Positions 27,119 through 64,000 of a stretch of 64,000 nt of DNA are shown one piece after another (within the stretch, counting starts at the first letter, position 1; each line of letters opens with the position of its first letter). The stretch covers positions 21,259 through 85,258 of the forward strand of contig JAJYWR010000005.1 of NCBI GenBank assembly GCA_021791395.1, read 5' to 3'. The notes under the pieces were generated by a model. That model searched no databases. It was not told the origin of the DNA and saw nothing but the letters and a program-made list of their open reading frames with translations. A program made the translations under genes and the position numbers. The stretch comes from a bacterium (lineage in GTDB: Bacteria > Patescibacteriota > Minisyncoccia > UBA6257 > GWB1-50-10).

Positions 27119-28033
27119 TTATTGGAGCATGAACGGACCGCTCACGGCCGGTGTCCCACCCTTGCCGTCGATACCGATGGATATCTTATAATTTCCGTTC
27201 GATATAGACGGATCATATTTCCACGCATAGCTCCCCATATCGGGCAGGTTATTCGTGATAACCTTCACGATATTTCCCCGAGGATCCAGTAAAGTGATGC
27301 CGACTGTTTGGCCCGATACGCCCTTATCCTTCCACTGGATGTTCATAATTACATCCTTCCCGTCATTAGACCACACGCTGCCCGCCTGCGGACTAGTAAT
27401 AACGATTGGAGAAGCCGCGGAAGCTACCCCAACATCAATTCCCTCCTTATCGCTCCCCAGAACATTTCCAGTTGAGTTATAAGCAGTAAGACTCAGAGTT
27501 ACTGTCGCGGGCACATCCGAGTTGTTTATGACCGGTATGGTTAACGCAAGGTAGTCCAGCGTTGGATCATATAAGTCAATTGTATCGAACCTCAACGTCG
27601 TCCCGCAGATATTCTCGCCGTTTTTGCCAGACACCGTTACCCCATTGGGGCAACCAATGGAGAGATCCCAGTAAGAGATTGCTTTATTCTGGGGATATCC
27701 AGCAATAGAAACATTCGCGAAGGCGCCGTTTGAAGATTGGCCCTGAATATTTATTTTGAGAGTCACCGGAACCTGAGTCAATGGAGACGTTGAGGTAACC
27801 GAAACCGAAACTGAAGGATTTGTTTGATTTAATCCGCTTGTGGTACTTCCTTCTAGGGTAAGTTGAACCTTTGCTATCGTACCAGCGTCCGCGCCGAACG
27901 CCTGCAGGAGATTTACAATCGCCTGGACCTGCGACGAAGTGAGGCCACTTGCATACGCCTTAGCGCCCATAAAAGCGACCCCGAGAATCATAACGAACGA
28001 AAAAACTGCAATGACGAGCTTGTTGTGCTTCAT
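27119..28033 (-). CDS. hypothetical secreted protein
   Basis: It has a signal peptide (MKHNKLVIAVFSFVMILGVAFMGAKAYA) and no recognisable catalytic motif. Confidence 0.5.
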   Translation of the reverse strand: MKHNKLVIAVFSFVMILGVAFMGAKAYASGLTSSQVQAIVNLLQAFGADAGTIAKVQLTLEGSTTSGLNQTNPSVSVSVTSTSPLTQVPVTLKINIQGQSSNGAFANVSIAGYPQNKAISYWDLSIGCPNGVTVSGKNGENICGTTLRFDTIDLYDPTLDYLALTIPVINNSDVPATVTLSLTAYNSTGNVLGSDKEGIDVGVASAASPIVITSPQAGSVWSNDGKDVIMNIQWKDKGVSGQTVGITLLDPRGNIVKVITNNLPDMGSYAWKYDPSISNGNYKISIGIDGKGGTPAVSGPFMLQ

Positions 28034-29579: not shown

Positions 29580-31373
29580 CTACTGGGTAACGACGCCAGA
29601 ACCCGGTGCAACGCTCGAATCGTCCGGCAACGCCGTCGTCACCGGCCCCGCGGAGATATTTACGGCTGCTCCCGTGAAATTATCCGTCGCTTGAAGATTA
29701 CTCGTGTTCAGAAGATCTTCATACGAACCAATAAAATCTGAGGCCGGTGTTGCCGAAACTTGGAACACAGCCTCGGCCGGACCACCGAGGAATCCGCTCC
29801 CAGCAAAGACGTTCCCAATGCTCCACACCATGCTCTCGGTCGATGTGTCGTACGAAATCGAGGATGATGCAACCGTCGTCGTCGCAAAACCAGTCCAGAT
29901 AACGCCCGTCGGAAGCGGAGCTGACACGACGACATTACTCAAGTCGTTCCCGAAATCGCTTATCCGCCAGTGAATCGAGTATTCGGTGGCGCTCCCGACG
30001 CGGGGCGGAAAGGGACCTGAGTTTTGTACGGCGGACGAAGGATCGTTTGTATACCCTTTTGCGCTGAAATAAACCAAGCTTGAAATCTTCGTTTCTTCCG
30101 TCGTCTCGGCGAACGTTTGATTGCCAGACACATAGTACGGCACCGACGGCGAAGAGAGTGTAACATCCGCCTTGACGTACAAATTCTTATTCGAAAGCCC
30201 CTGCAAGGAAACGGGCGCGGAGAGCGTCGTCGAAAGCGTAAGATTCAAATTCCCGACCGTGCCAGGTTCAACGAACGCCAAGGCGGGCGTCGTCGACGAA
30301 TTCCACGTTACGGTTCTCGTCGAAGGATTAAATATGCCGTCCGTTTTTACACTCGACCAGTCGGCAAAACCGGAAAGGATCGCCTTTACAACGACATCTT
30401 TCAAGGCGATTCCGCTTTGATTGTTGTATTGGATCGAATAGTTCAATGTATCCACCGGCTTTGCGACGTAGTTATTCGATCCGTTTACAGTGACGCTTAC
30501 GCCAATCGGCGATGGCGAAAGAGAAAACGTGGCTTGGTAGTCGGCAATGTCATAGTTTTGGCCGTTCAAAACGGCATAGAGCTTCAAGGGTATCGTAAAC
30601 GATGAGGCGCTTGAATCGGTGAATATCCCCTTGATGGTTACGGTGCCGGTCGCGTTCGCCGCAGCCGAACCGAGCGCGAAGGTATCGGCAAGAGTCGCAG
30701 CTGGAGCACTCGCTGATTCGAATTGGAACGAGTTGGGGAAATCCGCCTCGAGGATCATCGCGGGAAAATTGAACTGAGAACTGTTCGCGTAGTTGACGCT
30801 AAAAGAAAGTGCTGAGCCGTTCAATATTTGATCCGGCTTCGTGATACTCATGGTTACGGCGGAGTTGGACAAGAGAACCTTCACTTCTTGTTTTACTTCA
30901 AAACGGCTCCCCGTTTGATTGAAATAGAAGAACGAAACGTCCAGTGTCTGACTGGAATTCAAATCGCCGACCGGGATCACTTGATAGTTCTTTTTCACGA
31001 GATCTCCCACTCCCACGTCGCCCGTATTTTCCGAGTAAACGCTCCCACTCGTCGTCGAATTCCAAATCAGGAGTCCATTGGAAAGCGTTACGGCAATCGA
31101 CGAGTTCCTGATCGGATTGCCAGACACATTCATTATGTTGAGATCCAGCTCGAAAGGAACTCCCCGCGAGACATCGGTCGGCGCCGTAACTTCCAAATCG
31201 ACCCCCTTCGGCTGATTTAGATAGTATGCAATGAATGCAACGCCGGCGATGATGACGGCGAGGCCGACAAAGATCAGTCCCCAAAGAATCTTGGGAACCC
31301 AAGCTGAAACCGTCCTCTTAGTAGAGGACTTCCTGAACTTCTTCAACCTTTTTTCTATATCGGAGATTGCCAT
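29580..31373 (-). CDS. hypothetical large membrane-anchored surface protein
   Basis: It has an N-terminal TM helix followed by a ~540-aa Ser/Thr/Asn-rich region that looks beta-rich. No motif was recognised. Confidence 0.5.
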   Translation of the reverse strand: MAISDIEKRLKKFRKSSTKRTVSAWVPKILWGLIFVGLAVIIAGVAFIAYYLNQPKGVDLEVTAPTDVSRGVPFELDLNIMNVSGNPIRNSSIAVTLSNGLLIWNSTTSGSVYSENTGDVGVGDLVKKNYQVIPVGDLNSSQTLDVSFFYFNQTGSRFEVKQEVKVLLSNSAVTMSITKPDQILNGSALSFSVNYANSSQFNFPAMILEADFPNSFQFESASAPAATLADTFALGSAAANATGTVTIKGIFTDSSASSFTIPLKLYAVLNGQNYDIADYQATFSLSPSPIGVSVTVNGSNNYVAKPVDTLNYSIQYNNQSGIALKDVVVKAILSGFADWSSVKTDGIFNPSTRTVTWNSSTTPALAFVEPGTVGNLNLTLSTTLSAPVSLQGLSNKNLYVKADVTLSSPSVPYYVSGNQTFAETTEETKISSLVYFSAKGYTNDPSSAVQNSGPFPPRVGSATEYSIHWRISDFGNDLSNVVVSAPLPTGVIWTGFATTTVASSSISYDTSTESMVWSIGNVFAGSGFLGGPAEAVFQVSATPASDFIGSYEDLLNTSNLQATDNFTGAAVNISAGPVTTALPDDSSVAPGSGVVTQ

Positions 31374-40119: not shown

Positions 40120-42087
40120 TTAAAGGAACGGAACAATGAGGAGGGCTACAATGTTGATAACCTTAATCAACGGATTGATCGCGGGACCTGCGGTATCCTT
40201 GTAAGGATCGCCGACGGTATCTCCGGTAACGGCGGCCTTGTGAGCATCCGATCCCTTGCCACCGAAGTTGCCCGATTCGATGTATTTCTTTGCATTATCC
40301 CACGCGGCTCCGCCAGAAGTCATGGAAATCGCGATAAAAAGTCCCGAGACGATTGTACCAATCAAGAACCCGCCGAGGGCCTCCTTTCCCAAAATGAATC
40401 CCACGAGGAGCACCATGACGACCGGCAAAAGCGCCGGGACAATCATTTCTCGGAGAGCCGACTTCGTCACGATGTCGACGGCCTTCTTGTAATCGGGTTT
40501 TGCCGAACCTTCGAGAAGCCCCTTGATTTCCCGAAACTGCCTTCGGATTTCTTCGACAATCGAGCCGGCCGCCTTGCCGACCGATTTCATGGCCATCGAT
40601 CCGAATAGGTAGGGGATCGAAGCTCCTAAAATGAGGCCGATTAAGACGTATGGGTTTTGGATGTCGAACGTGACATTCGAAGAGATCTTTTGAACCGCGT
40701 CCGTGTATGCGCTAAAGAGCACAAGTGCGGCGAGCCCGGCCGATGCGATGGCATATCCTTTCGTTACCGCTTTCGTGGTGTTCCCGACGGCATCCAAGGC
40801 GTCCGTGATCTTCCGGACCTCTTCCGGAGCACCGCTCATTTCGGCGATACCGCCGGCATTATCCGTGATTGGCCCAAATGAATCAATGGAAACAATGATG
40901 CCGGCAACGGAAAGCATCGAAACAGCGGCGATGGCGACGCCATAGATGCCCGCAAGCAAGTACGATCCAATAATGCCGGCAACGATGACAAGAATCGGCA
41001 AGAAGGTCGCTTCCATACCAACCGAAAGGCCAATAATGATGTTTGTTCCGTGTCCCGATTTCGAAGCATCGGCGATGTTCTTCACCGGCTTGTACTTTTT
41101 CGAAGTGTAATAATCCGTGATGATAACCATGAGCGCCGTCACGAGAAGACCGATGAGGCTCGAAAAGAATATATTCATAGCATTCCCTCCCATGAATGAC
41201 TGAGCGGCAAAATAGAACAAAATCGCTGCCACAATCAAGGCGACAGTGAGCCCTTTGTAGAGCGCGCCCATAATCGATTCGCTCTTGCCAAGTTTTACAA
41301 AGAAACTTCCGATGATTGAAGCAATAATCGCAAGGCCGCCCATGACGAGCGGAAAGATGAGTTGGGCGCCGGAAAGCGCAAGTGCGCTTCCGATCAAGAT
41401 CGAAGCGGTTAAAGTTACCGCATACGTCTCAAAAAGGTCGGCAGCCATGCCGGCGCAGTCGCCGACATTGTCGCCGACATTGTCGGCGATCACGCCCGGA
41501 TTCCGCGGATCATCTTCCGGAATCCCGGCTTCAACTTTCCCGACCAAATCGGTCCCGACATCCGCTGCTTTTGTAAAAATGCCGCCGCCAAGGCGGGCAA
41601 AAACCGAAATCAAACTTGCGCCGAATCCAAGGCCAATCAAACTCCGGATATCATGTGTTAAGAGAAAAAATCCCGAGACTGCAAGGAGACCGACGCCGAC
41701 AACAAGGAGTCCCGTGACCGATCCGGCCTTAAAGGCGAGCGAAAGCGCCGATTTCAACCCATGGCTTGCCGCATCCGTCGTTTTCGCGTTCGACCGGACG
41801 GCAACGCTCATACCGAGAAATCCAGCGAGAGCCGACGCGATGGCGCCGACCAAAAATCCGACGGCCGTAAGCCAGCCGAGTGCGAGATAAATTGCAACGA
41901 AAAGGACAACTGCAACAATGCCGACCGTCTTGTACTGCCGACCGAGATATGCGGACGACCCTTCTTGAATCGCTCTCGAAATCTCCTTCATTTTGTCGCT
42001 TCCCGAACTCTGCTTTTTGAGCCATAACGCGAGGTATGCAGTATAGAAAACCGCAAGAACTACAGGACCGAAAATCAAATAATTCAT
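40120..42087 (-). CDS. hppA: membrane-integral (H+/Na+)-translocating pyrophosphatase
   Basis: It is a 655-aa multi-pass protein with [38 protein letters not shown] and [15 protein letters not shown]. Confidence 0.95.
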
Positions 42088-53732: not shown

Positions 53733-53743
53733 GGGGAAGCCTG

Positions 53744-53816
53744 TCGGCACGGTAGGACTCGAACCTACGATCCACGAGGTATAAGCTCGTTGCATTAGCC
53801 GCTATGCTACGTGCCG
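53744..53816 (-). tRNA. tRNA with anticodon UAU (reads AUA; predicted tRNA-Ile)
   Basis: Hand-folded: acceptor CGGCACG/CGTGCCG, D arm GCAT-AGCGGCTA-ATGC, anticodon arm ACGAG-CTTATAC-CTCGT, T arm GTAGG-TTCGAGT-CCTAC, discriminator A. Confidence 0.85.
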
Positions 53817-58393: not shown

Positions 58394-60835
58394 ATGGAAG
58401 AACAGAGAGAGCAGGGAAAAATAGAAGAAAAAGAAATAACCGCTGAACTTTCGGAAAGCTATTTGGACTACGCGATGTCCGTCATTGTCTCGCGCGCCCT
58501 CCCGGATGTTCGGGACGGCCTAAAGCCAGTGCAACGGAGAATTTTGTGGGCGATGTGGGATACGGGACTCACCCACAGCGCGAAATTCAAGAAATCCGCG
58601 AACGTCGTGGGAGAAGTACTCGGCAAATATCATCCGCATGGCGATATGGCGGTTTACGATGCCTTGGCCCGCATGGCCCAGGACTTTTCGCTCCGATATC
58701 CCCTGATCGACGGGCAGGGAAACTGGGGGTCCGTCGACGGCGACAGTCCGGCCGCCATGCGGTACACCGAAGCGCGGCTTTCGAGGATCGCCGAAGAAAT
58801 GCTCATCGACATCGAGAAAGAAACGGTCAATTGGATTCCCAATTACGACTCGACGCGTGAAGAACCTCAATTCCTTCCCGCCAAACTCCCGAACTTACTT
58901 TTGAACGGCACAGTCGGCATCGCTGTCGGCATGGCCACATCCATTCCGCCCCATAACCTCGGGGAAGTGGCGGACGCGGTCGCTCACCTCGCAAAAAATC
59001 CTGACGCAACGGTAAAAGATCTCATGCAATTCATCCAAGGGCCCGATTTTCCGACGGGCGGTCTTGTATATGGTAAGAAATCGCTCGAAGAAGCGTACTC
59101 AACCGGCAAGGGCTCCATTACGATGCGCGCAAAAGCCGACATTGAAGAGCGAAAGAGCGGTAGTTTTCAAATCGTCATCACGGAAATCCCGTACCAAGTC
59201 AACAAAGCCGACCTCATCACGAAGATCGCGGAACTCGTCCAAGAAAAGAAAGTCGAGGGCATCAAGGATGTCCGCGACGAATCGGACCGCGAAGGTCTTC
59301 GGATCGCAATCGATCTCAAGACTGACGCGAATCCGCAAAAAATCTTGAATCAACTCTTCGAATACACCGAGCTCCAGAAAAATTTCTATTACAATATGCT
59401 CGCCTTGGTCGACGGCATCCAACCGCAAGTCCTTTCCCTGAAAGACGTCCTCTCACAATACCTTGAACATCGGAAAGTCATCATTCGCCGGCGAACCGAA
59501 TTCGACCTCAAGAAAGCCGAAGAACGGGCGCATATCCTAGAGGGATTGGTAACCGCGCTCGACGTCATCGACAAAATCATCGCGACCATCAAGAAATCGA
59601 AAGACAAGGAAACCGCGAAGGCAAACCTGATGAAGAATTTCAAACTCTCCGCGCTCCAAGCTGATGCGATTCTCGAAATGAAATTGCAATCCTTGGCCGC
59701 CCTCGAGCGGATTAAATTGGAGGACGAATTGAAGGAAAAGAAGAAAATGATCGCGGAGTTTAAGCTTATCCTAAAGGAACCGAAACGAATCCTTGCGATC
59801 ATCGAAGGGGATCTCGAGTATTTGAAAAAGACGTTCGATAATCCCCGAAAAACGAAAGTCGTTGCCGGCGGCCTCAAGGAATTCAACGAAGAGGATTTGA
59901 TACCGGAAGGGGATTCGATTATCGCAATTTCCGAAGACGGTTACATTAAACGGATGCCGCCCGACACGTTCCGCGCTCAAAAGCGCGGAGGAAAGGGATT
60001 GATCGGCGCAGAGCTCAAGGAGGAAGATAAGATCTCACAAATCATTTATGCTTCGACGCACGACAATATTCTCTTCTTTACCAACAAGGGGCGGGCATTC
60101 CAAACGAAGGCGTACGAAATACCCGAAGCGTCACGCACTTCGAAAGGAAAATCAATCTACAACTTCCTCGAGGTACCGGTAACGGAAAAGGTGAGCGCCG
60201 TCATTTCATATCCCAAGGATACGAAAGAGGGGTATCTCGTCATGATCACGAGAGGCGGCATCGTGAAAAAAACTCCACTCGAGGATTTTGAAAATGTCCG
60301 ACGGACCGGCATTATCGCCATCAAGCTTTCTCCCGATGACGCGCTTCTTTGGGTCAAACTTTCCGGGGGCAGCGATGAAGTAATCCTCGCGACAACAAGA
60401 GGCCAAGCCATTCGATTTAAAGAAAAAGATGTGCGAGAAATGGGACGAACCGCGGGAGGAGTGAAGGGCATCTCCCTTAAAAAGAATGATGTGGTTTCCG
60501 GAGCCGACATCGTGCCCACGAAGTCAGTCGGAAACTCGCGCCTCCTTGTTGTTATGGCGAACGGCTTCGGAAAGCAAACAAACCTTAAAGAATATAAAAT
60601 ACAAAGGAGAGGCGGCTCGGGGATCAAGACGGCAAACATCACCGACAAAACGGGAACCGTCATCGGCGCTCACGTCGTAGGAGATGAAATCACGGAACTG
60701 ATTGCTTTTTCCTCGAAGGGCCAAGCCATTAAGATACCCCTGAAAGACGTGCGAGTTCTCGGGAGAGCGACCCAAGGTGTTAAAATTATGAATGTAGATA
60801 AAGGAGATACTTTGGTCGGCATTGTTGCCTTATGA
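58394..60835 (+). CDS. gyrA: DNA gyrase subunit A
   Basis: It carries [11 protein letters not shown], and [10 protein letters not shown] containing the catalytic Tyr. The ORF 58316.. is trimmed to MEEQREQGK because the extension overlaps the repeat element. Confidence 0.97.
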
Positions 60836-62139
60836 ATTTTTCAAAACAACAACTCATCATCTTCGGAGGAATCGGCCTCTTGATCCTTGTCCTCATTCTC
60901 GTCTTCGCGGGAATTCTCCCCGGATCGAAGACCTCGACAAATAACCCGGCAAACACCCAGGGGGGTCTTACAATGTGGATCTACGGCGATCAACCTTCCT
61001 TTTACAATCAAGCTATCGCCGCATTCAACGCAACCTATCCGCACGTCAAGGTGGACGTTCGAGCATTCGGTAATTACGGAACCTATTCCCAAACGCTTCT
61101 CGAGGCCATGGCGTCCGGCCAAGCACCCGATATTTTCATGATCCCCTCAACCGAACTCCCAACGTACTTCAATAAGATCGTCCCCGTGAGCTCGGCGCTC
61201 TTCTCGCCGTTCAACTTGCAGCAAGATTTCCCCGCAGTCGTCTACCAAGATTTCGTATCCGGACAATACGTGTACGGACTCCCACTTTCCCTCGATACGA
61301 TGGCTCTTTTTTACAACAAAGATCTCTTTACAAAGGCGGGGATTGTGTATCCGCCCGCGACCTGGCAAGATTTCGACCGCATCGTTCCGTCCCTCACGCA
61401 AATTTCATCGACCGGCACCATCGATCAAGCAGCGGCAGCCATCGGCACGTCGAACGCAAATATCGACCACGCGACCGATCTCTTGTCGCTCCTTATGCTC
61501 CAAACGGGCACCACGATAACCAACGCAACAAAGAATCAGGCGACGTTTGCCGTCGACACCGGCTTCAACGCCTTCAAATTTTACACTCAATTTTCTGACC
61601 CCAAGAATAATCTGTATACGTGGAACGACAATATGCCCGATTCGCTCGATGCGTTTGCAACAAACAAAGTCGCCATGATCTTCGATTATGAATCGGCCGT
61701 GAACCAACTGAAGGCAAAAAATTCTTTCTTGAACTACGGTATTGCGCCCGTTCCCCAACCGGCTTCGTCAACGGCATACGTTTCCTACCCGGACTATGCC
61801 GGCTTCGTCGTTTCCAAGCAGTCGAGGTACCAGTCGCTTGCGTGGACGCTCATTCTCTCCATGACAACAAATGCCCAAAACGCCAATTCGTACGTCACCG
61901 CATCGGGCAACCCCCCGGCGCTCCTTTCACTTATTCAAAGCCGCCTCCAAGACCCGAATCTTTCGGTCTTCGCAAAACAAGCTCTCTACGCCCGGTCGTG
62001 GTATGGACCGAACCGGACTTCTATTGCAAGCGTCCTTTCGCAGATGATCGATGCATACGTGACCGGCCAAACAAGCCTTCAAACCGCCGTGAAAGAGGCG
62101 GCGAACCAAGTGACGAGTATAATGAATAGTGGACTCTGA
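60832..62139 (+). CDS. extracellular solute-binding protein (ABC-type, family 1-like), TM-anchored, with no adjacent permease or ATPase genes
   Basis: It has an N-terminal TM helix. The pattern is LTMWIYGD...[19 protein letters not shown]...[15 protein letters not shown]. Confidence 0.7.
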
Positions 62140-63695
62140 TGAAACGGGGGATTATCAAAAAATTGGCGATTACATCCGCTTTCGGGGCATTTATCGTCCT
62201 CTTTTTTGCGGCTCACGGATTCGCCCTTGCCCAAGGCACCGGCATCTGGGCTGATACGAGCTGCGCGGCGCGGAGTACGACGGGCGGTCCCGTCGGCCCC
62301 TGCGATTTCTGCGATGCAATCATCGTCACAAACAACATCATCCAGATGCTCTTTAAGTTCTCGCTTGGAATCGGAACGCTCATGATCGTCATCGGCGGCG
62401 TTGCCATGATCATTTCGGCGGGTAGTAAGGAAAAATTCGAAAAAGGAAAAAAAATTCTCGTGAAAGCGGTGACCGGCGTCGCTATTGCTCTCCTCTCGTG
62501 GATCATCGTCTCGACGGTCATCCGCGTCCTCACAGGGAGTTCCGCATTCCCCTGGAACCAAATTTCCTGCACCCACAACCCGCAATTGCAACCCTTGAAT
62601 TCGCTGCCGAATCTCGCAACCGCCTCAAGCACATATATGAAGGTTGCCTCGAACGGCTCGTATGCCTGCAGTGCGAGCGGCAATACCTGCAACAACTCTG
62701 ACTTCAGTGGTTCATTCTGCAGTACAGCAACATGCTATGCAGGCGACAAGACCGAATGCGGACAACCGGCCGTCGGAACCACTACCGTGTGGGCTCCGGC
62801 AAATTCGGCGACGACCTACGGCAGCGCGACGATCTACGATTGCTCCGCGGGGTATACTTCCCAATCGGCCTGTGAAAGCGGTTCCGGAACTTCCTGCACG
62901 CCCATTACGACAAATGGAGCAAACCCCCAAGATTCCCAGCCGACTCAAACGGCCGCAAGTCAATACATCATCCATGCGGCAATCGGGAACGATGGAACGT
63001 TCCACTGCGGCACGTCGACTATTCAAAATGTTCCCGCCAACGCACAAATTTACGAATTGGGGCAGATGCCGTTTTTAACCGATAAATGGACTAATCTCGG
63101 CGGCTTTACCGACGCCTGCAAATCCGAGATAATCAACGGCTCGATGCAGGACAACTGGTGCGGCGCGAACGTCGTCAACAATCTTGACGAAATGAACTGG
63201 ATAACGGGCTGCGTCCCGTTCGGAGTAAATCTCGGCACTGATTGGACATATTTCAAGTGGGCACTGAACGGCGGGGCACTTTGCAGCCCCTCCGGAAAGA
63301 GCTGCAATGACATCGTGGGGGCGGACCCCAACGATCCGTGTCTCGTAGGGCGCAAGTCCATCATTAAGTGCGGTGAAGGAGGAACGACGTACGCTAAAAT
63401 TTCCAACAACGGCGTGTGGGCCTGCGGATACCCGGCAAGCCAAATACAGGGGGCTCCCATCAACGCCACTACATATACCGTCGGGCAGGGTTACTTCATA
63501 AATACTTCGCTATGTGGTGAGAAGGTTTTGCCGAACTTTCCCACCACGCCCCCCAACGCCGTTTACGCCAAAAAACTGAGTGACGGTAAGTATACCTGCA
63601 GCTTTATTGACTGCAATATGCCGAATTCCGATCCGAATGCCGACTGCATCATCCTCCCTGGACTTGAGCAATGCGAAGGACAAGTCCTACACTGA
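62139..63695 (+). CDS. TrbC/VirB2-like (T4SS-pilin family) domain fused to a ~370-aa Cys-rich extracellular domain
   Basis: It has a signal peptide, a CDFCD pair, and two TM helices flanking the GGVAMIISAGSKEKFEKGKK loop. The C-terminal region then has about 23 Cys by my count and repeated x-SNG-x-Y/W-x-C modules. Confidence 0.6.
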   Translation: MKRGIIKKLAITSAFGAFIVLFFAAHGFALAQGTGIWADTSCAARSTTGGPVGPCDFCDAIIVTNNIIQMLFKFSLGIGTLMIVIGGVAMIISAGSKEKFEKGKKILVKAVTGVAIALLSWIIVSTVIRVLTGSSAFPWNQISCTHNPQLQPLNSLPNLATASSTYMKVASNGSYACSASGNTCNNSDFSGSFCSTATCYAGDKTECGQPAVGTTTVWAPANSATTYGSATIYDCSAGYTSQSACESGSGTSCTPITTNGANPQDSQPTQTAASQYIIHAAIGNDGTFHCGTSTIQNVPANAQIYELGQMPFLTDKWTNLGGFTDACKSEIINGSMQDNWCGANVVNNLDEMNWITGCVPFGVNLGTDWTYFKWALNGGALCSPSGKSCNDIVGADPNDPCLVGRKSIIKCGEGGTTYAKISNNGVWACGYPASQIQGAPINATTYTVGQGYFINTSLCGEKVLPNFPTTPPNAVYAKKLSDGKYTCSFIDCNMPNSDPNADCIILPGLEQCEGQVLH

Positions 63696-63710: not shown

Positions 63711-64000
63711 ATGAAATCAATGAAAAAAATAGCGCTTCTCCTCGCCATCGTCTTTGCCTTTACCTCGGGCAGCATCGCTCTCGCCGATCTTAATCCGCCA
63801 AGCCCTTCAGCAACGAACATCACCCTCATCAACCCTTTGGGCGGCGGCAATAGCGACATTTCAAGCGTCATCAACAACGTCATGCAGTGGCTTATTATGG
63901 CGGGATCTCCCATTGCGGCGCTCATGGTCGTCGTCGGTGGCATCCAAATTCTTACCTCCGGCGGAGAGCCAGAAAAGTTCAAAAAAGGCAGACAGACAAT
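63711..64000 (+). CDS. TrbC/VirB2-like T4SS-pilin family protein (3' end beyond the window)
   Basis: This ORF is absent from the supplied track because it has no in-window stop. My translation is MKSMKKIALLLAIVFAFTSGSIALADLNPP...ISSVINNVMQWLIMAGSPIAALMVVVGGIQILTSGGEPEKFKKGRQT. Confidence 0.6.
   Translation, partial: MKSMKKIALLLAIVFAFTSGSIALADLNPPSPSATNITLINPLGGGNSDISSVINNVMQWLIMAGSPIAALMVVVGGIQILTSGGEPEKFKKGRQT

Follow-up and report, generated by a model that had tools for sequence, protein, structure and literature searches.

What would a small membrane pilin do with a cysteine-rich tail of 370 residues, and on which side of the membrane would that tail act? These questions are raised by the first gene of a pilin array near the end of a 64,000-nucleotide stretch of a Patescibacteriota genome, hereafter the window. 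VirB2-like pilin arrays are known in CPR bacteria, and one of them, a set of six pilins within the Southlakia epibionticum ML1 T4SS locus, is essential (PMC12102498, PMC10633639, PMC12857230). Quinonero-Coronel et al. 2025 describe 441 Patescibacteria arrays of 2-11 pilins. These papers make no mention of a cysteine-rich tail or of a linkage to a solute-binding protein (SBP), and we found no described Cys-rich or fused VirB2-like pilin from CPR in the searchable literature.

The long pilin heads an array in a conserved gyrA-SBP-pilin cluster

The long pilin gene is the first gene of its array and lies in a conserved chromosomal gyrA-SBP-pilin cluster of a Paceibacteria-type Patescibacteria genome (Table 1). 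A conserved neighbour of the cluster, gyrA has homologues that begin MEEQREQGK, and its counterparts in the loci of relatives carry DNA_topoisoIV and DNA_gyraseA_C domains. The SBP domain assignments are strong (SBP_bac_8, E 7.4e-31, 108 bits; SBP_bac_1, E 6e-26), and the position of the SBP gene is preserved in loci L001-L019. Its stop codon and the start codon of the long pilin share the sequence TGATG, a start/stop coupling that the original prediction had proposed and that direct reading confirmed; the coupling is kept across distant lineages. The same prediction had called the SBP gene an orphan, which is correct in that no permease or ATPase gene adjoins it in any locus examined, in the window or in relatives, but the gene is no accidental neighbour, as it is a conserved partner of the array. 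The terminator scan placed no terminator-like site before the SBP gene, and both promoter and terminator scans gave chance-level output only.

Table 1 Features of the gyrA-SBP-pilin cluster, in window coordinates
Feature	Coordinates	Strand	Description and evidence
gyrA	58394..60835	+	Same direction as and 5' of the SBP gene; gyrA stop overlaps SBP start (ATGA)
Membrane-anchored SBP, 435 aa	60832..62139	+	SBP_bac_8/SBP_bac_1 domains
Long pilin gene, whole, 518 aa	62139..63695	+	ATG start; pilin with Cys-rich tail
Signal peptide, residues 1-31	62139..62231	+	KRGIIKK n-region, hydrophobic core, GFALA/QG cleavage motif (slash, cut); hydropathy
Mature N-terminal outer segment	62232..62318	+	Conserved GTGIW, C42, C55-D-F-C58-D (CDFCD, residues 55-59)
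Pilin core	62319..62537	+	Helix 1 ~61-95, basic loop 96-105, helix 2 ~106-133; PF18895 match, hydropathy, AF2
PWNQISC (C144, ancestral C-terminus) and linker THNPQLQPLNSLPNLATASS	62538..62624	+	Conserved; junction PWNQISC-THNPQ
Module A (residues 163-208, 5 Cys) and module X (209-258, 3 Cys)	62625..62912	+	Unit HMM; AF2 pLDDT 70-84
B-A unit 1, residues 275-411, 8 Cys	62961..63371	+	Unit HMM 133 bits; alignment A3
Hypervariable insertion within unit 1, residues 313-366	63075..63236	+	High dN, indels; AF2 pLDDT <50 in parts
B-A unit 2, residues 414-518, 6 Cys	63378..63692	+	Unit HMM 120 bits; AF2
Second pilin gene of array, canonical size, partial	63711..64000	+	Cut by window end; PF18895

The next gene downstream, also anticipated as a pilin-like gene of canonical size, gives a partial product that scores 31.1 bits against PF18895; its orthologue in L008 is 123 aa long. 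The full-length orthologue reaches 41.1 bits against PF18895 and 23.4 bits against TrbC (GA 27.9), where it aligns to TrbC positions 8-96 of 98. Close relatives have five consecutive PF18895 genes (36-41 bits), that is, every gene of the array.

T4SS machinery was looked for around the locus, as the original prediction had suggested, and did not appear. None of the 57 window ORFs scanned has a VirB4, VirD4, VirB6 or TrsD domain, and the 62 kb upstream of the long pilin contain no T4SS machinery. In L001-L006, L015 and L017-L019 the sequence up to 10 kb from the array, its downstream side included, is likewise free of VirB4, VirB6, VirD4 and other T4SS genes. This neighbourhood gives weight to an alternative in which the hairpin of the long pilin only anchors it at the cell surface, outside any filament, and its ectodomain serves for binding, envelope organisation or nutrient capture together with the co-transcribed SBP: T4SS assembly genes are missing near the array, and distant lineages keep both the SBP gene and its translational coupling to the pilin gene. 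Two features of the genomic setting point the other way. The array also encodes four further PF18895 pilins, and the source genome of L015 (Jorgensenbacteria GW2011_GWB1_50_10), which has a homologous cluster, is listed as VirB4-positive, elsewhere in the genome, in Table S1 of PMC12102498. Taken with the evidence from the tail and the core given below, we regard this alternative as somewhat unlikely.

The core belongs to a four-cysteine subfamily of PF18895 pilins

The predicted order of signal peptide, CDFCD motif, helix, basic loop and second helix can be read directly in the N-terminal region. An A-x-A cleavage motif followed after the cut by (Q/A)G is kept in all homologues, and W37, C55, C58 and D59 are invariant in alignment A4. 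Hydropathy peaks at residues 4-36, 66-97 and 105-136, and AF2 places helices at residues 57-92 and 97-132; the inter-helix loop, SAGSKEKFEKGKK, includes the basic part SKEKFEKGKK (96-105) with a charge of +3. AF2 pLDDT falls below 50 over residues 128-162.

Against PF18895 (T4SS_pilin), the full protein scores 26.7 bits, a marginal pass of 0.1 bit over the gathering cut-off of 26.6, and residues 1-154 alone score 29.4 bits, so that the proposed HMM search of the N-terminus came out narrowly above the Pfam cut-off. The match spans residues 64-126, corresponding to profile positions 9-70 of 71. Searching the other way, with a profile built on the N-terminal subfamily, retrieved 102 proteins, nearly all already annotated as PF18895; a k-mer search with the N-terminus alone had returned one protein only, and a profile built from diverse N-termini was needed to reach the 102. 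The long pilin shares with the family its gathering score, a signal peptide and two helices with a basic loop, and a place in a tandem array. It departs from the family in size (518 aa against about 90-180 aa), the surplus being the appended domain and not a different core.

Lengths among the 102 relatives have a median of 139 aa, with 94 at or below 180 aa, seven at or above 200 aa, and a longest member of 273 aa. Short relatives are thus somewhat longer than the 100-130 aa originally supposed (94-180 aa, median 139), while the claim that 518 aa is exceptional for the family stands. The CxxCD motif occurs in 64 of the 102; 56 of these 64 have exactly four cysteines, and 51 terminate within four residues of the last cysteine. 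The long pilin therefore belongs to a widespread four-cysteine subfamily of PF18895 (VirB2-like) pilins. Members of this subfamily start with a signal peptide and an outer N-segment bearing C...CxxCD; a hairpin of two helices joined by a basic loop follows, and the protein closes with PWxxIxC.

Placement in the TrbC/VirB2 family itself, also part of the original prediction, was not supported: the long pilin has no PF04956 match at E≤1, and just its neighbour's orthologue scores against that model, below the cut-off. Two distant relatives, P0075 and P0110, carry both PF18895 and PF04956 annotations. A Foldseek search of the PDB ranked the A. pernix conjugation pilus 8dfu eighth, at a non-significant E of 2.9 (TM(target) 0.62, 75 columns); the core is modelled at pLDDT 50-67. 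A profile search of PDB sequences gave chance transmembrane matches only. To our knowledge, no pilus made of PF18895 proteins has ever been seen.

The tail is modular and grafted onto the ancestral C-terminus

Of 26 cysteines in the long pilin, four lie in residues 1-150 and 22 in the 370-aa tail, one fewer than the approximately 23 first counted there. Cysteine makes up 6.0% of the tail, compared with 0.41% in 47 other Pfam-supported window genes (binomial P ~1e-18). The tail is modular, comprising an A half-unit, module X and two B-A units of ~105 aa, and the repeats are real: each B-A unit has six conserved cysteines (alignment A3), and an HMM trained on B-A units alone also finds the separate A half-unit (residues ~160-208, i-E 3.8e-6). 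All four recurring modules originally quoted are present and were borne out as repeats by this unit HMM.

Module content varies among homologues that share the N-terminus (P0001-P0007, P0010, L007-L013). Sets range from none, in the short forms, to the full A-X-(B-A)-(B-A); P0003, P0005 and P0007 lack the A-X pair, and the single unit of P0007 is 59% identical to unit 2 of the long pilin. Because the short relatives end 0-3 residues past the cysteine equivalent to C144, the tail can be seen to have been grafted onto the ancestral C-terminal cysteine of a four-cysteine short pilin, which occurred in one small lineage.

The tail has no detectable relatives outside the family

AF2 models B-A unit 2 with confidence (mean pLDDT 85.6, pTM 0.78), while the full-length model (pLDDT 61.5, pTM 0.30) is too weak to judge module packing or a C58-C144 contact. 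Known domains were rejected as the identity of the tail: residues 150-518 match nothing in Pfam or NCBIfam at E≤1, the unit profile has no match among PDB sequences at E≤10, the best Foldseek matches to the confidently modelled unit have E 1.7 in the PDB and 0.57 in BFVD, with TM≤0.32, and Foldseek of the full-length model against the PDB assigns the tail to no known domain. An exhaustive phmmer search of 1.84 billion proteins with the tail produced four matches, three of them family members; the fourth, a eukaryotic EGF/sushi protein matched at E 4e-4 over ~40 residues, was rejected as compositional. Within the window and 19 loci, the unit HMM recovers orthologous pilins only from all six-frame ORFs. 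The tail domain is thus unique to this pilin family among the 1.84 billion proteins searched, and its fold is without a known match.

Among relatives, the tail of the fourth pilin of the array weakly resembles Dickkopf_N (22-23 bits; GA 25), and the unit HMM finds no match in it. The B-A units resemble Dickkopf_N-like, EGF and sushi domains in being small disulfide-type modules in tandem, but differ from them in having no Pfam match.

The fusion is real and under purifying selection

A pilin joined to such a tail could in principle be a chimeric ORF arising from mis-assembly, frameshift or read-through, or a decaying pseudogene. Two relatives give this some colour, as codon 477 of L006/P0002 is an in-frame TAA and the tail of L009/P0010 is truncated and Cys-depleted. 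Yet the same architecture, with the same PWNQISC-THNPQ junction and tail, recurs in at least eight independent assemblies, and dN/dS for the whole gene is 0.07-0.11 along its full length, with dS of 0.64-0.86. Even in L006 the frame past the stop is conserved to residue 518, and the gene differs little in GC content from the window (53.9% against 50.4%). Recurrence in independent assemblies and purifying selection together effectively refute mis-assembly or pseudogenisation, to which we attach almost no weight, and the comparison across genomes that had been called for thus removes the risk of a mis-assembled junction. The gene is intact, real and under purifying selection.

Selection is uneven along the protein. 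By part, dN/dS is 0.02-0.09 in the core, 0.01-0.06 in A-X and 0.01-0.12 in the Cys-rich modules overall. The core is the most conserved part of the gene, more so than a mere membrane anchor would need, which speaks against a surface protein outside any filament. The insertion at residues 313-366 has dN of 0.10-0.30, saturated dS and indels between relatives that are ~90% identical overall, whereas the remaining tail modules (166-258, 278-312, 367-518) show dN of 0.005-0.09. Strong conservation marks the tail outside the insertion (omega 0.01-0.12), in contrast to many host-range determinants.

Topology and cysteine chemistry

Sec export and cleavage of the signal peptide would leave both ends of the hairpin outside the cell and the basic loop in the cytoplasm. 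The signal peptide and the basic inter-helix loop thus suggest an extracellular tail, and topology prediction agrees with the original proposal in placing the Cys-rich domain outside, not in the cytoplasm. Because cysteine numbers are even in every module set, the tail is also probably oxidised, with its cysteines in disulfides.

The CxxC motif allows a different chemistry to be considered, in which the four core cysteines, and possibly some of the tail, form a metal or redox site of an extracytoplasmic redox or metal-handling component. Thioredoxin-like and metal-binding motifs of this type have their CxxC at a helix N-cap, and here too the CxxC caps helix 1, which starts at residue 57 in the AF2 model; in 56 of the 64 CxxCD members the four cysteines hardly vary. 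Structural disulfides fit better with the even number of cysteines in each module set, with the joint loss of C184 and C199 in L009, and with a predicted extracellular domain in a genome whose other window genes have 0.41% Cys; nor does the protein match a redox family in Pfam or NCBIfam. We consider a metal or redox site improbable.

Discussion

We propose that the long pilin is a pilin of the array with a grafted outer Cys-rich tail, acting as a low-copy pilin or as a hairpin-anchored surface protein that binds a ligand on a host or partner cell, a reading to which we give about an even chance. By analogy with the F pilus, the long pilin could enter a VirB2-like filament with its tail displayed outward. 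For steric reasons a tail of 370 aa on every subunit would be implausible, and alongside lie genes for four pilins that are plain or shorter, which favours a low-copy role; the protein may accordingly be an initiating, tip or sparsely decorating pilin, or may simply be a hairpin-anchored surface protein. Its tail would bind a ligand on the surface of a host or partner cell, and the hypervariable loop of unit 1 may be the part that determines specificity. An adhesin or minor-pilin role is plausible; we infer the adhesin function from the location of the tail, its Cys-rich repeat character and one variable loop, in a domain with no similarity to known binding domains.

If the tail were instead carried by the major structural pilin, every subunit would bear it and the result would be a thick 'bottle-brush' pilus. 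The long pilin gene comes first in the array, its direct coupling to upstream genes may give it the highest level of translation, and the outward orientation of both pilin termini in F pili would accommodate such a structure. Against it, the tail outweighs the core by about three to one, any of four plainer pilins could supply the structural subunit, and relatives with the same array have no tail or one to three module sets, which indicates that the tail is dispensable for the function of the core. We judge this arrangement very improbable. The size of the tail, awkward for tight helical packing of the kind described for F pili (PMC5018250), also adds to the case for a hairpin-anchored protein outside any filament.

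With other Patescibacteria VirB2-like arrays the long pilin shares the family PF18895, a signal peptide and two-helix hairpin, and a chromosomal setting of tandem sequence-divergent paralogues in a CPR genome; it differs in that the array adjoins gyrA and the SBP gene instead of virB4, and in the 370-aa Cys-rich tail of a member whose relatives are mostly at or below 180 aa. In the F pilus both pilin termini are exterior and the inter-helix loop lies in the lumen, so that a C-terminal graft would be displayed outside (PMC5018250). TraA (F), VirB2 (Ti) and TrbC (RP4), all of PF04956, are likewise small membrane proteins, exported by Sec and made of two helices joined by a basic loop. The orthologue of the neighbouring pilin aligns to TrbC at 23.4 bits, but the long pilin itself has no PF04956 match. 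VirB2 and TrbC are cyclised head to tail, whereas in the long pilin the C-terminal cysteine and an N-segment cysteine could form a disulfide staple instead. No VirB2-family pilin known to us from nature carries a large C-terminal domain. Such an arrangement has its parallel in modular type IV pilins, for example PilB of Streptococcus sanguinis, where a functional module sits on the pilin C-terminus: in both, a pilin core for polymerisation would be combined with a binding module appended to a minor subunit, although the type IV filament has a class III signal peptide and an unrelated pilin fold.

The proposed role, that of a target-cell contact element of a T4SS, is also that of VirB5 and PrgB, to which we found no relation in sequence or fold. 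VirB5, a pilus-tip protein, also nucleates pilus growth (PMC12857230). PrgB-like adhesins are reported as not detected in CPR, so the long pilin would be a replacement for them and not a homologue. In a more far-reaching version, unlikely in its entirety, the gyrA-SBP-pilin cluster would encode the external part of a T4SS-related filament for host contact or uptake: the four-cysteine, disulfide-stapled first pilin would be the initiating or tip subunit, with its own grafted adhesin of new fold and a hypervariable specificity loop, and the anchored SBP would help to capture host-derived molecules. The first pilin may then be the disulfide-stapled counterpart of a cyclic T-pilin, in bacteria without VirB5 and PrgB-type adhesins. 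If this filament reading is true, no 'modular' VirB2-family pilin would have been known from nature before the long pilin.

The sole genetically tractable Patescibacterium requires its T4SS genes and pilin arrays to live as an epibiont, and no T4SS adhesin has so far been found in Patescibacteria. This analysis defines a widespread four-cysteine pilin subfamily with a C-terminal cysteine, a deeply conserved SBP-pilin linkage that is unmentioned in the searchable literature, and a Cys-rich unit of ~105 residues with a confident predicted structure and no detectable relatives outside the family. A large pilin domain predicted to be extracellular offers an expressible handle for seeking a ligand or host, and its modular gain and loss among close relatives constitutes a natural experiment on host specificity.

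Pilin core and predicted topology

Translation of the window confirms the long-pilin open reading frame of the original prediction, together with the N-terminal layout claimed for it: a signal peptide, a CxxC pair, two hydrophobic stretches and an intervening loop. The TGATG overlap behind its proposed translational coupling to a solute-binding protein (SBP) gene is likewise present, the long-pilin start and the upstream stop having one base in common. The Pfam T4SS_pilin model (PF18895) aligns to residues 64-126 (profile positions 9-70 of 71) and scores 26.7 bits on the full-length protein, against a gathering score of 26.6, and 29.4 bits on the N-terminal 154 residues alone. Because the forward score is marginal, we also ran a reverse search with a profile covering the first 150 residues of nine diverse homologues (alignment A4), which agreed, recovering 102 proteins that are nearly all already annotated as PF18895. 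The label "T4SS-pilin-like (TrbC/VirB2 family)" therefore stands in its first half, while the TrbC/VirB2 model (PF04956) gave no match to the long pilin at E ≤ 1; NCBIfam gave none either. AlphaFold2 places helices at residues 57-92 and 97-132 in a full-length model of weak overall confidence (pLDDT 61.5, pTM 0.30). Every Foldseek match of this model in the PDB was non-significant, and the archaeal conjugative pilus subunit at rank 8 (E 2.9) is no more than compatible with a pilin.

Of the 26 cysteines, 4 precede residue 150 and 22 follow it, giving a tail that is 6.0% Cys compared with 0.41% in 47 Pfam-supported window genes (binomial P about 1e-18); all four modules quoted in the original prediction are found there. 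Five Lys and two Glu lie in the inter-helix loop, whereas the segments preceding helix 1 and following helix 2 have no net positive charge. Given the signal peptide, the mature N-terminus is predicted to lie outside the cell and, because of the positive-inside rule, this charge pattern would make the loop cytoplasmic and the tail extracellular, as originally proposed. Such a placement agrees with a Cys content that is 15-fold the average of the local proteome.

Features of the long pilin, its relatives and the window
Feature	Sequence	Position	Strand	Description
Long pilin	window	62139..63695	+	ATG start, 518 aa
Signal peptide	long pilin			MKRGIIKK, hydrophobic core, GFALA/QG; read from translation
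Outer segment	long pilin			C42 and C55-D-F-C58-D; read from translation
Core cysteines	window	62262..62318 and 62568..62570		C42, C55, C58, C144
First hydrophobic stretch	long pilin	residues ~61-95
Inter-helix loop	long pilin	between the hydrophobic stretches		SAGSKEKFEKGKK
Second hydrophobic stretch	long pilin	residues ~106-133
Linker	long pilin	after C144, then modules		THNPQLQPLNSLPNLATASS; low confidence (AlphaFold2 pLDDT <50 at residues 128-162)
Architecture	window, L007, L008, L006			A-X-(B-A)-(B-A), 515-523 aa
Architecture	L010, L011			A-X-(B-A), 369-372 aa
Architecture	P0003/L012, P0005			(B-A)-(B-A), 378-379 aa
Architecture	P0007/L013			(B-A), 265 aa
Architecture	P0010/L009	L009 10001..10807		degenerate A-X, 268 aa
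Architecture	L014-L016			no tail, 134-157 aa
In-frame TAA	L006 (P0002)	~5362..5364		codon 477 of orthologue, within an A-run
Fourth pilin	L008	11648..12400		downstream of window end
Fourth pilin	L012	12035..12880		downstream of window end
gyrA-SBP-pilin array	window	58394..63695		also in L001-L019
tRNA-Ile	window	53743..53816	-	anticodon UAU, adjoins tRNA-Val(UAC)
Candidate surface protein	window	29580..31373	-	597 aa, DUF11 repeat
Candidate surface protein	window	27119..28033	-	304 aa, Kre9/KNH-like Ig domain
Membrane H+-pyrophosphatase	window	40120..42087	-	887 bits
L, loci in relatives' genomes; P, homologous proteins; A, X and B, tail modules.

Tail modules and fold

Every tail module starts with a Y-A-K-I-x-N-G-x-(W/Y)-x-C hairpin motif. 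Type B modules conserve two Cys together with the motif IQGAP-x-NA, type A modules conserve four Cys (C-S-x-S-G-x-x-C-N-D ... C-L-I ... C), and a B-A pair forms a ~105-residue unit with six conserved Cys, to which additional Cys are added only in pairs (alignments A2 and A3). The A+X part holds 8 Cys, unit 1 (residues 275-411) 8 and unit 2 (residues 414-518) 6. An HMM trained on B-A units alone also detects the lone A half-unit at residues ~160-208 (i-E 3.8e-6) and, across the window and 19 loci, nothing beyond the pilin family's own tail modules.

AlphaFold2 models unit 2 (alignment A3) as a set of β-hairpins (mean pLDDT 85.6, pTM 0.78), reproducibly so in five of five models (pLDDT 83.7-85.6). 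This model has no significant neighbour in the PDB (best E 1.7, TM ≤ 0.32) or BFVD (best E 0.57), and neither a search of PDB sequences with the unit profile nor Pfam gave a match. When 1.84 billion representative proteins were searched exhaustively by phmmer, residues 151-518 matched four of them at E ≤ 1e-3, three being family members; the fourth, a eukaryotic EGF/sushi protein aligned over ~40 residues (E 4e-4), we regard as compositional. The grafted domain is previously undescribed, with a fold lacking a match and a very narrow distribution.

Tail evolution among relatives

A full-protein database search found six homologues (92-36% identity) that have the N-terminus in common and Cys-rich tails of differing length, and ten loci came from scanning a single genome for each GTDB species. 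Architectures read from translated loci and proteins show modular gain and loss of the tail. In four ~90%-identical genes (dS 0.64-0.86), dN/dS is 0.07-0.11 over the whole gene and 0.01-0.12 inside the Cys-rich modules; the frame therefore encodes a protein constrained over its full length, and the whole gene is under purifying selection. That the gene is an artefact, such as a mis-assembled junction, is extremely improbable, since the same N-terminus recurs with Cys-rich tails in homologues and dN/dS is low throughout. Within unit 1, an indel-rich loop (residues 313-366) is hypervariable, with dN of 0.10-0.30 versus 0.005-0.09 in other tail modules.

Two individual loci are worth recording. 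The TAA in L006 reflects a sequencing error or else a nonsense mutation of recent origin; past it, the frame stays conserved through residue 518, where the protein normally ends. In L009, where the orthologue's tail is cut to A-X only, C184 and C199 are both lost, a joint loss that suggests a C184-C199 disulfide in the intact module.

Graft point and core cysteines

CxxCD is present in 64 of the 102 subfamily relatives, 56 of which have exactly four Cys, and 51 of the 64 stop no more than 4 residues past the last Cys, typically in ...P-W-x-x-I-x-C. Because the counterpart of this Cys in the long pilin is C144, the tail was added to a widespread short pilin at its ancestral C-terminus. The protein is thus a PF18895 core onto whose ancestral C-terminus a repeat-built, Cys-rich tail, predicted to be extracellular, has been grafted. 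Subfamily length has a median of 139 aa, and only 7 of 102 members reach at least 200 aa; other add-ons among these seven (Cys-rich N-terminal extensions, a helical tail, tandem double pilins) indicate that pilin decoration arises sporadically, the long pilin being the largest decoration among the relatives examined. The add-ons in the PF18895 proteins P0101, P0081, P0072, P0075 and P0078 range from Cys-rich sequence, either as an N-terminal extension or as segments at both ends, to a helical tail rich in Ala and fusions of two tandem pilins.

In this widespread 4-Cys subfamily the CxxCD caps the N-terminal end of helix 1, and a further Cys is found at or near the very C-terminus (PWxxIxC-COOH). 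All four conserved core Cys are predicted to face outward, three from the N-segment and the fourth from the ancestral C-terminus. VirB2 and TrbC are head-to-tail cyclised, and by analogy we infer that a disulfide staple joining both pilin ends may be the functional counterpart of this cyclisation. A metal site at the four core Cys could be an alternative. More generally, it appears unlikely that the Cys serve in redox chemistry or metal handling, a reading that would not exclude the others.

Genomic neighbourhood

The window is housekeeping throughout. Among the 57 ORFs scanned are LeuRS, a class-I tRNA synthetase (tRNA-synt_1 family), MetRS, H+-PPase, FtsK, RecA, NusA, SHMT and FtsH, and no VirB4, VirD4, VirB6 or type IV pilus domain occurs in any of the 57. 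The H+-pyrophosphatase sits amid otherwise minimal housekeeping genes, and tRNA-Ile(UAU) is an uncommon bacterial route to reading AUA. In every locus examined VirB4 is absent within 10 kb of the array, although the source genome of one tailless locus, L015, is listed as VirB4-positive (Table S1, PMC12102498).

The gyrA, SBP and pilin genes have start/stop overlaps with no terminator-like site between them, and coupling of the SBP stop to the first pilin start is usual across the loci. They sit in a longer housekeeping synteny (SHMT - RNaseH-like - FtsH - S1 - Lactamase_B_3 - hypothetical - GyrA - SBP - pilins ... - XerC - S15 - NYN - PNPase) that spans close relatives, Jorgensenbacteria, Brennerbacteria and Paceibacterota MAGs. 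The upstream SBP, of the SBP_bac_8/1 type, is anchored in the membrane, and in no locus does a permease or ATPase gene adjoin it. It had been called an orphan; since it keeps its place beside the array across relatives, it is a conserved partner and not a stray gene. Two MAGs with the closest homologues (L007, L010) are labelled 'uncultured Candidatus Saccharibacteria bacterium'; as synteny and nearest short homologues are Paceibacteria-type, these labels may be wrong.

The basic cluster has three short pilins and the window's clade five, all PF18895 (36-41 bits), in keeping with the canonical-size pilin-like gene noted after the long pilin. The orthologue of that next gene aligns to nearly the whole TrbC profile at 23.4 bits, below the threshold of 27.9. 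In relatives the fourth array pilin (250-281 aa) carries a different, CxxxxCPSGQTC-type Cys-rich tail, weakly Dickkopf_N-like (22-23 bits versus a cut-off of 25), so that two of the clade's five pilins are decorated.

Discussion

CPR genomes widely encode T4SSs related to monoderm conjugation systems and, unusually for monoderms, VirB2-like pilins; a catalogue of them comprises 441 pilin arrays, each of 2-11 divergent genes, and PrgB-like adhesins went undetected (PMC12102498). Epibiotic growth of Southlakia epibionticum requires both the T4SS genes and their pilin array, to which no function has been assigned (PMC10633639; PMC12857230; PMC11665869). In Gram-negative systems the pilus tip consists of VirB5, which also nucleates growth of the pilus (PMC12857230). 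The literature searched mentions neither a pilin fused to a large domain or a Cys-rich pilin, nor SBP or gyrA linkage to a pilin array.

The fusion is real and its original structural reading largely right, with "adhesin" and the T4SS link as candidate labels. Because the tail is bulky and four plainer pilins are present, the long pilin would be either a pilin present in few copies, whether as initiator, at the tip or as sparse decoration, or a surface protein anchored by its hairpin; that it is instead the major, decorated pilin is quite improbable. That it is purely a surface-anchored protein is possible but less likely. To the fuller proposal we give an even chance: an outwardly displayed, disulfide-bonded tail on such a low-copy pilin or surface protein would bind a structure on a partner cell, and the hypervariable loop would tune binding specificity.

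The source organisms have not been brought into culture, and the link of the long pilin to a filament or a ligand is for now putative. Both the pilin family and the array type are known, and what is new is the grafted domain of unmatched fold; for specialists in CPR and T4SSs, the modular pilin and its conserved SBP linkage are noteworthy and experimentally approachable.
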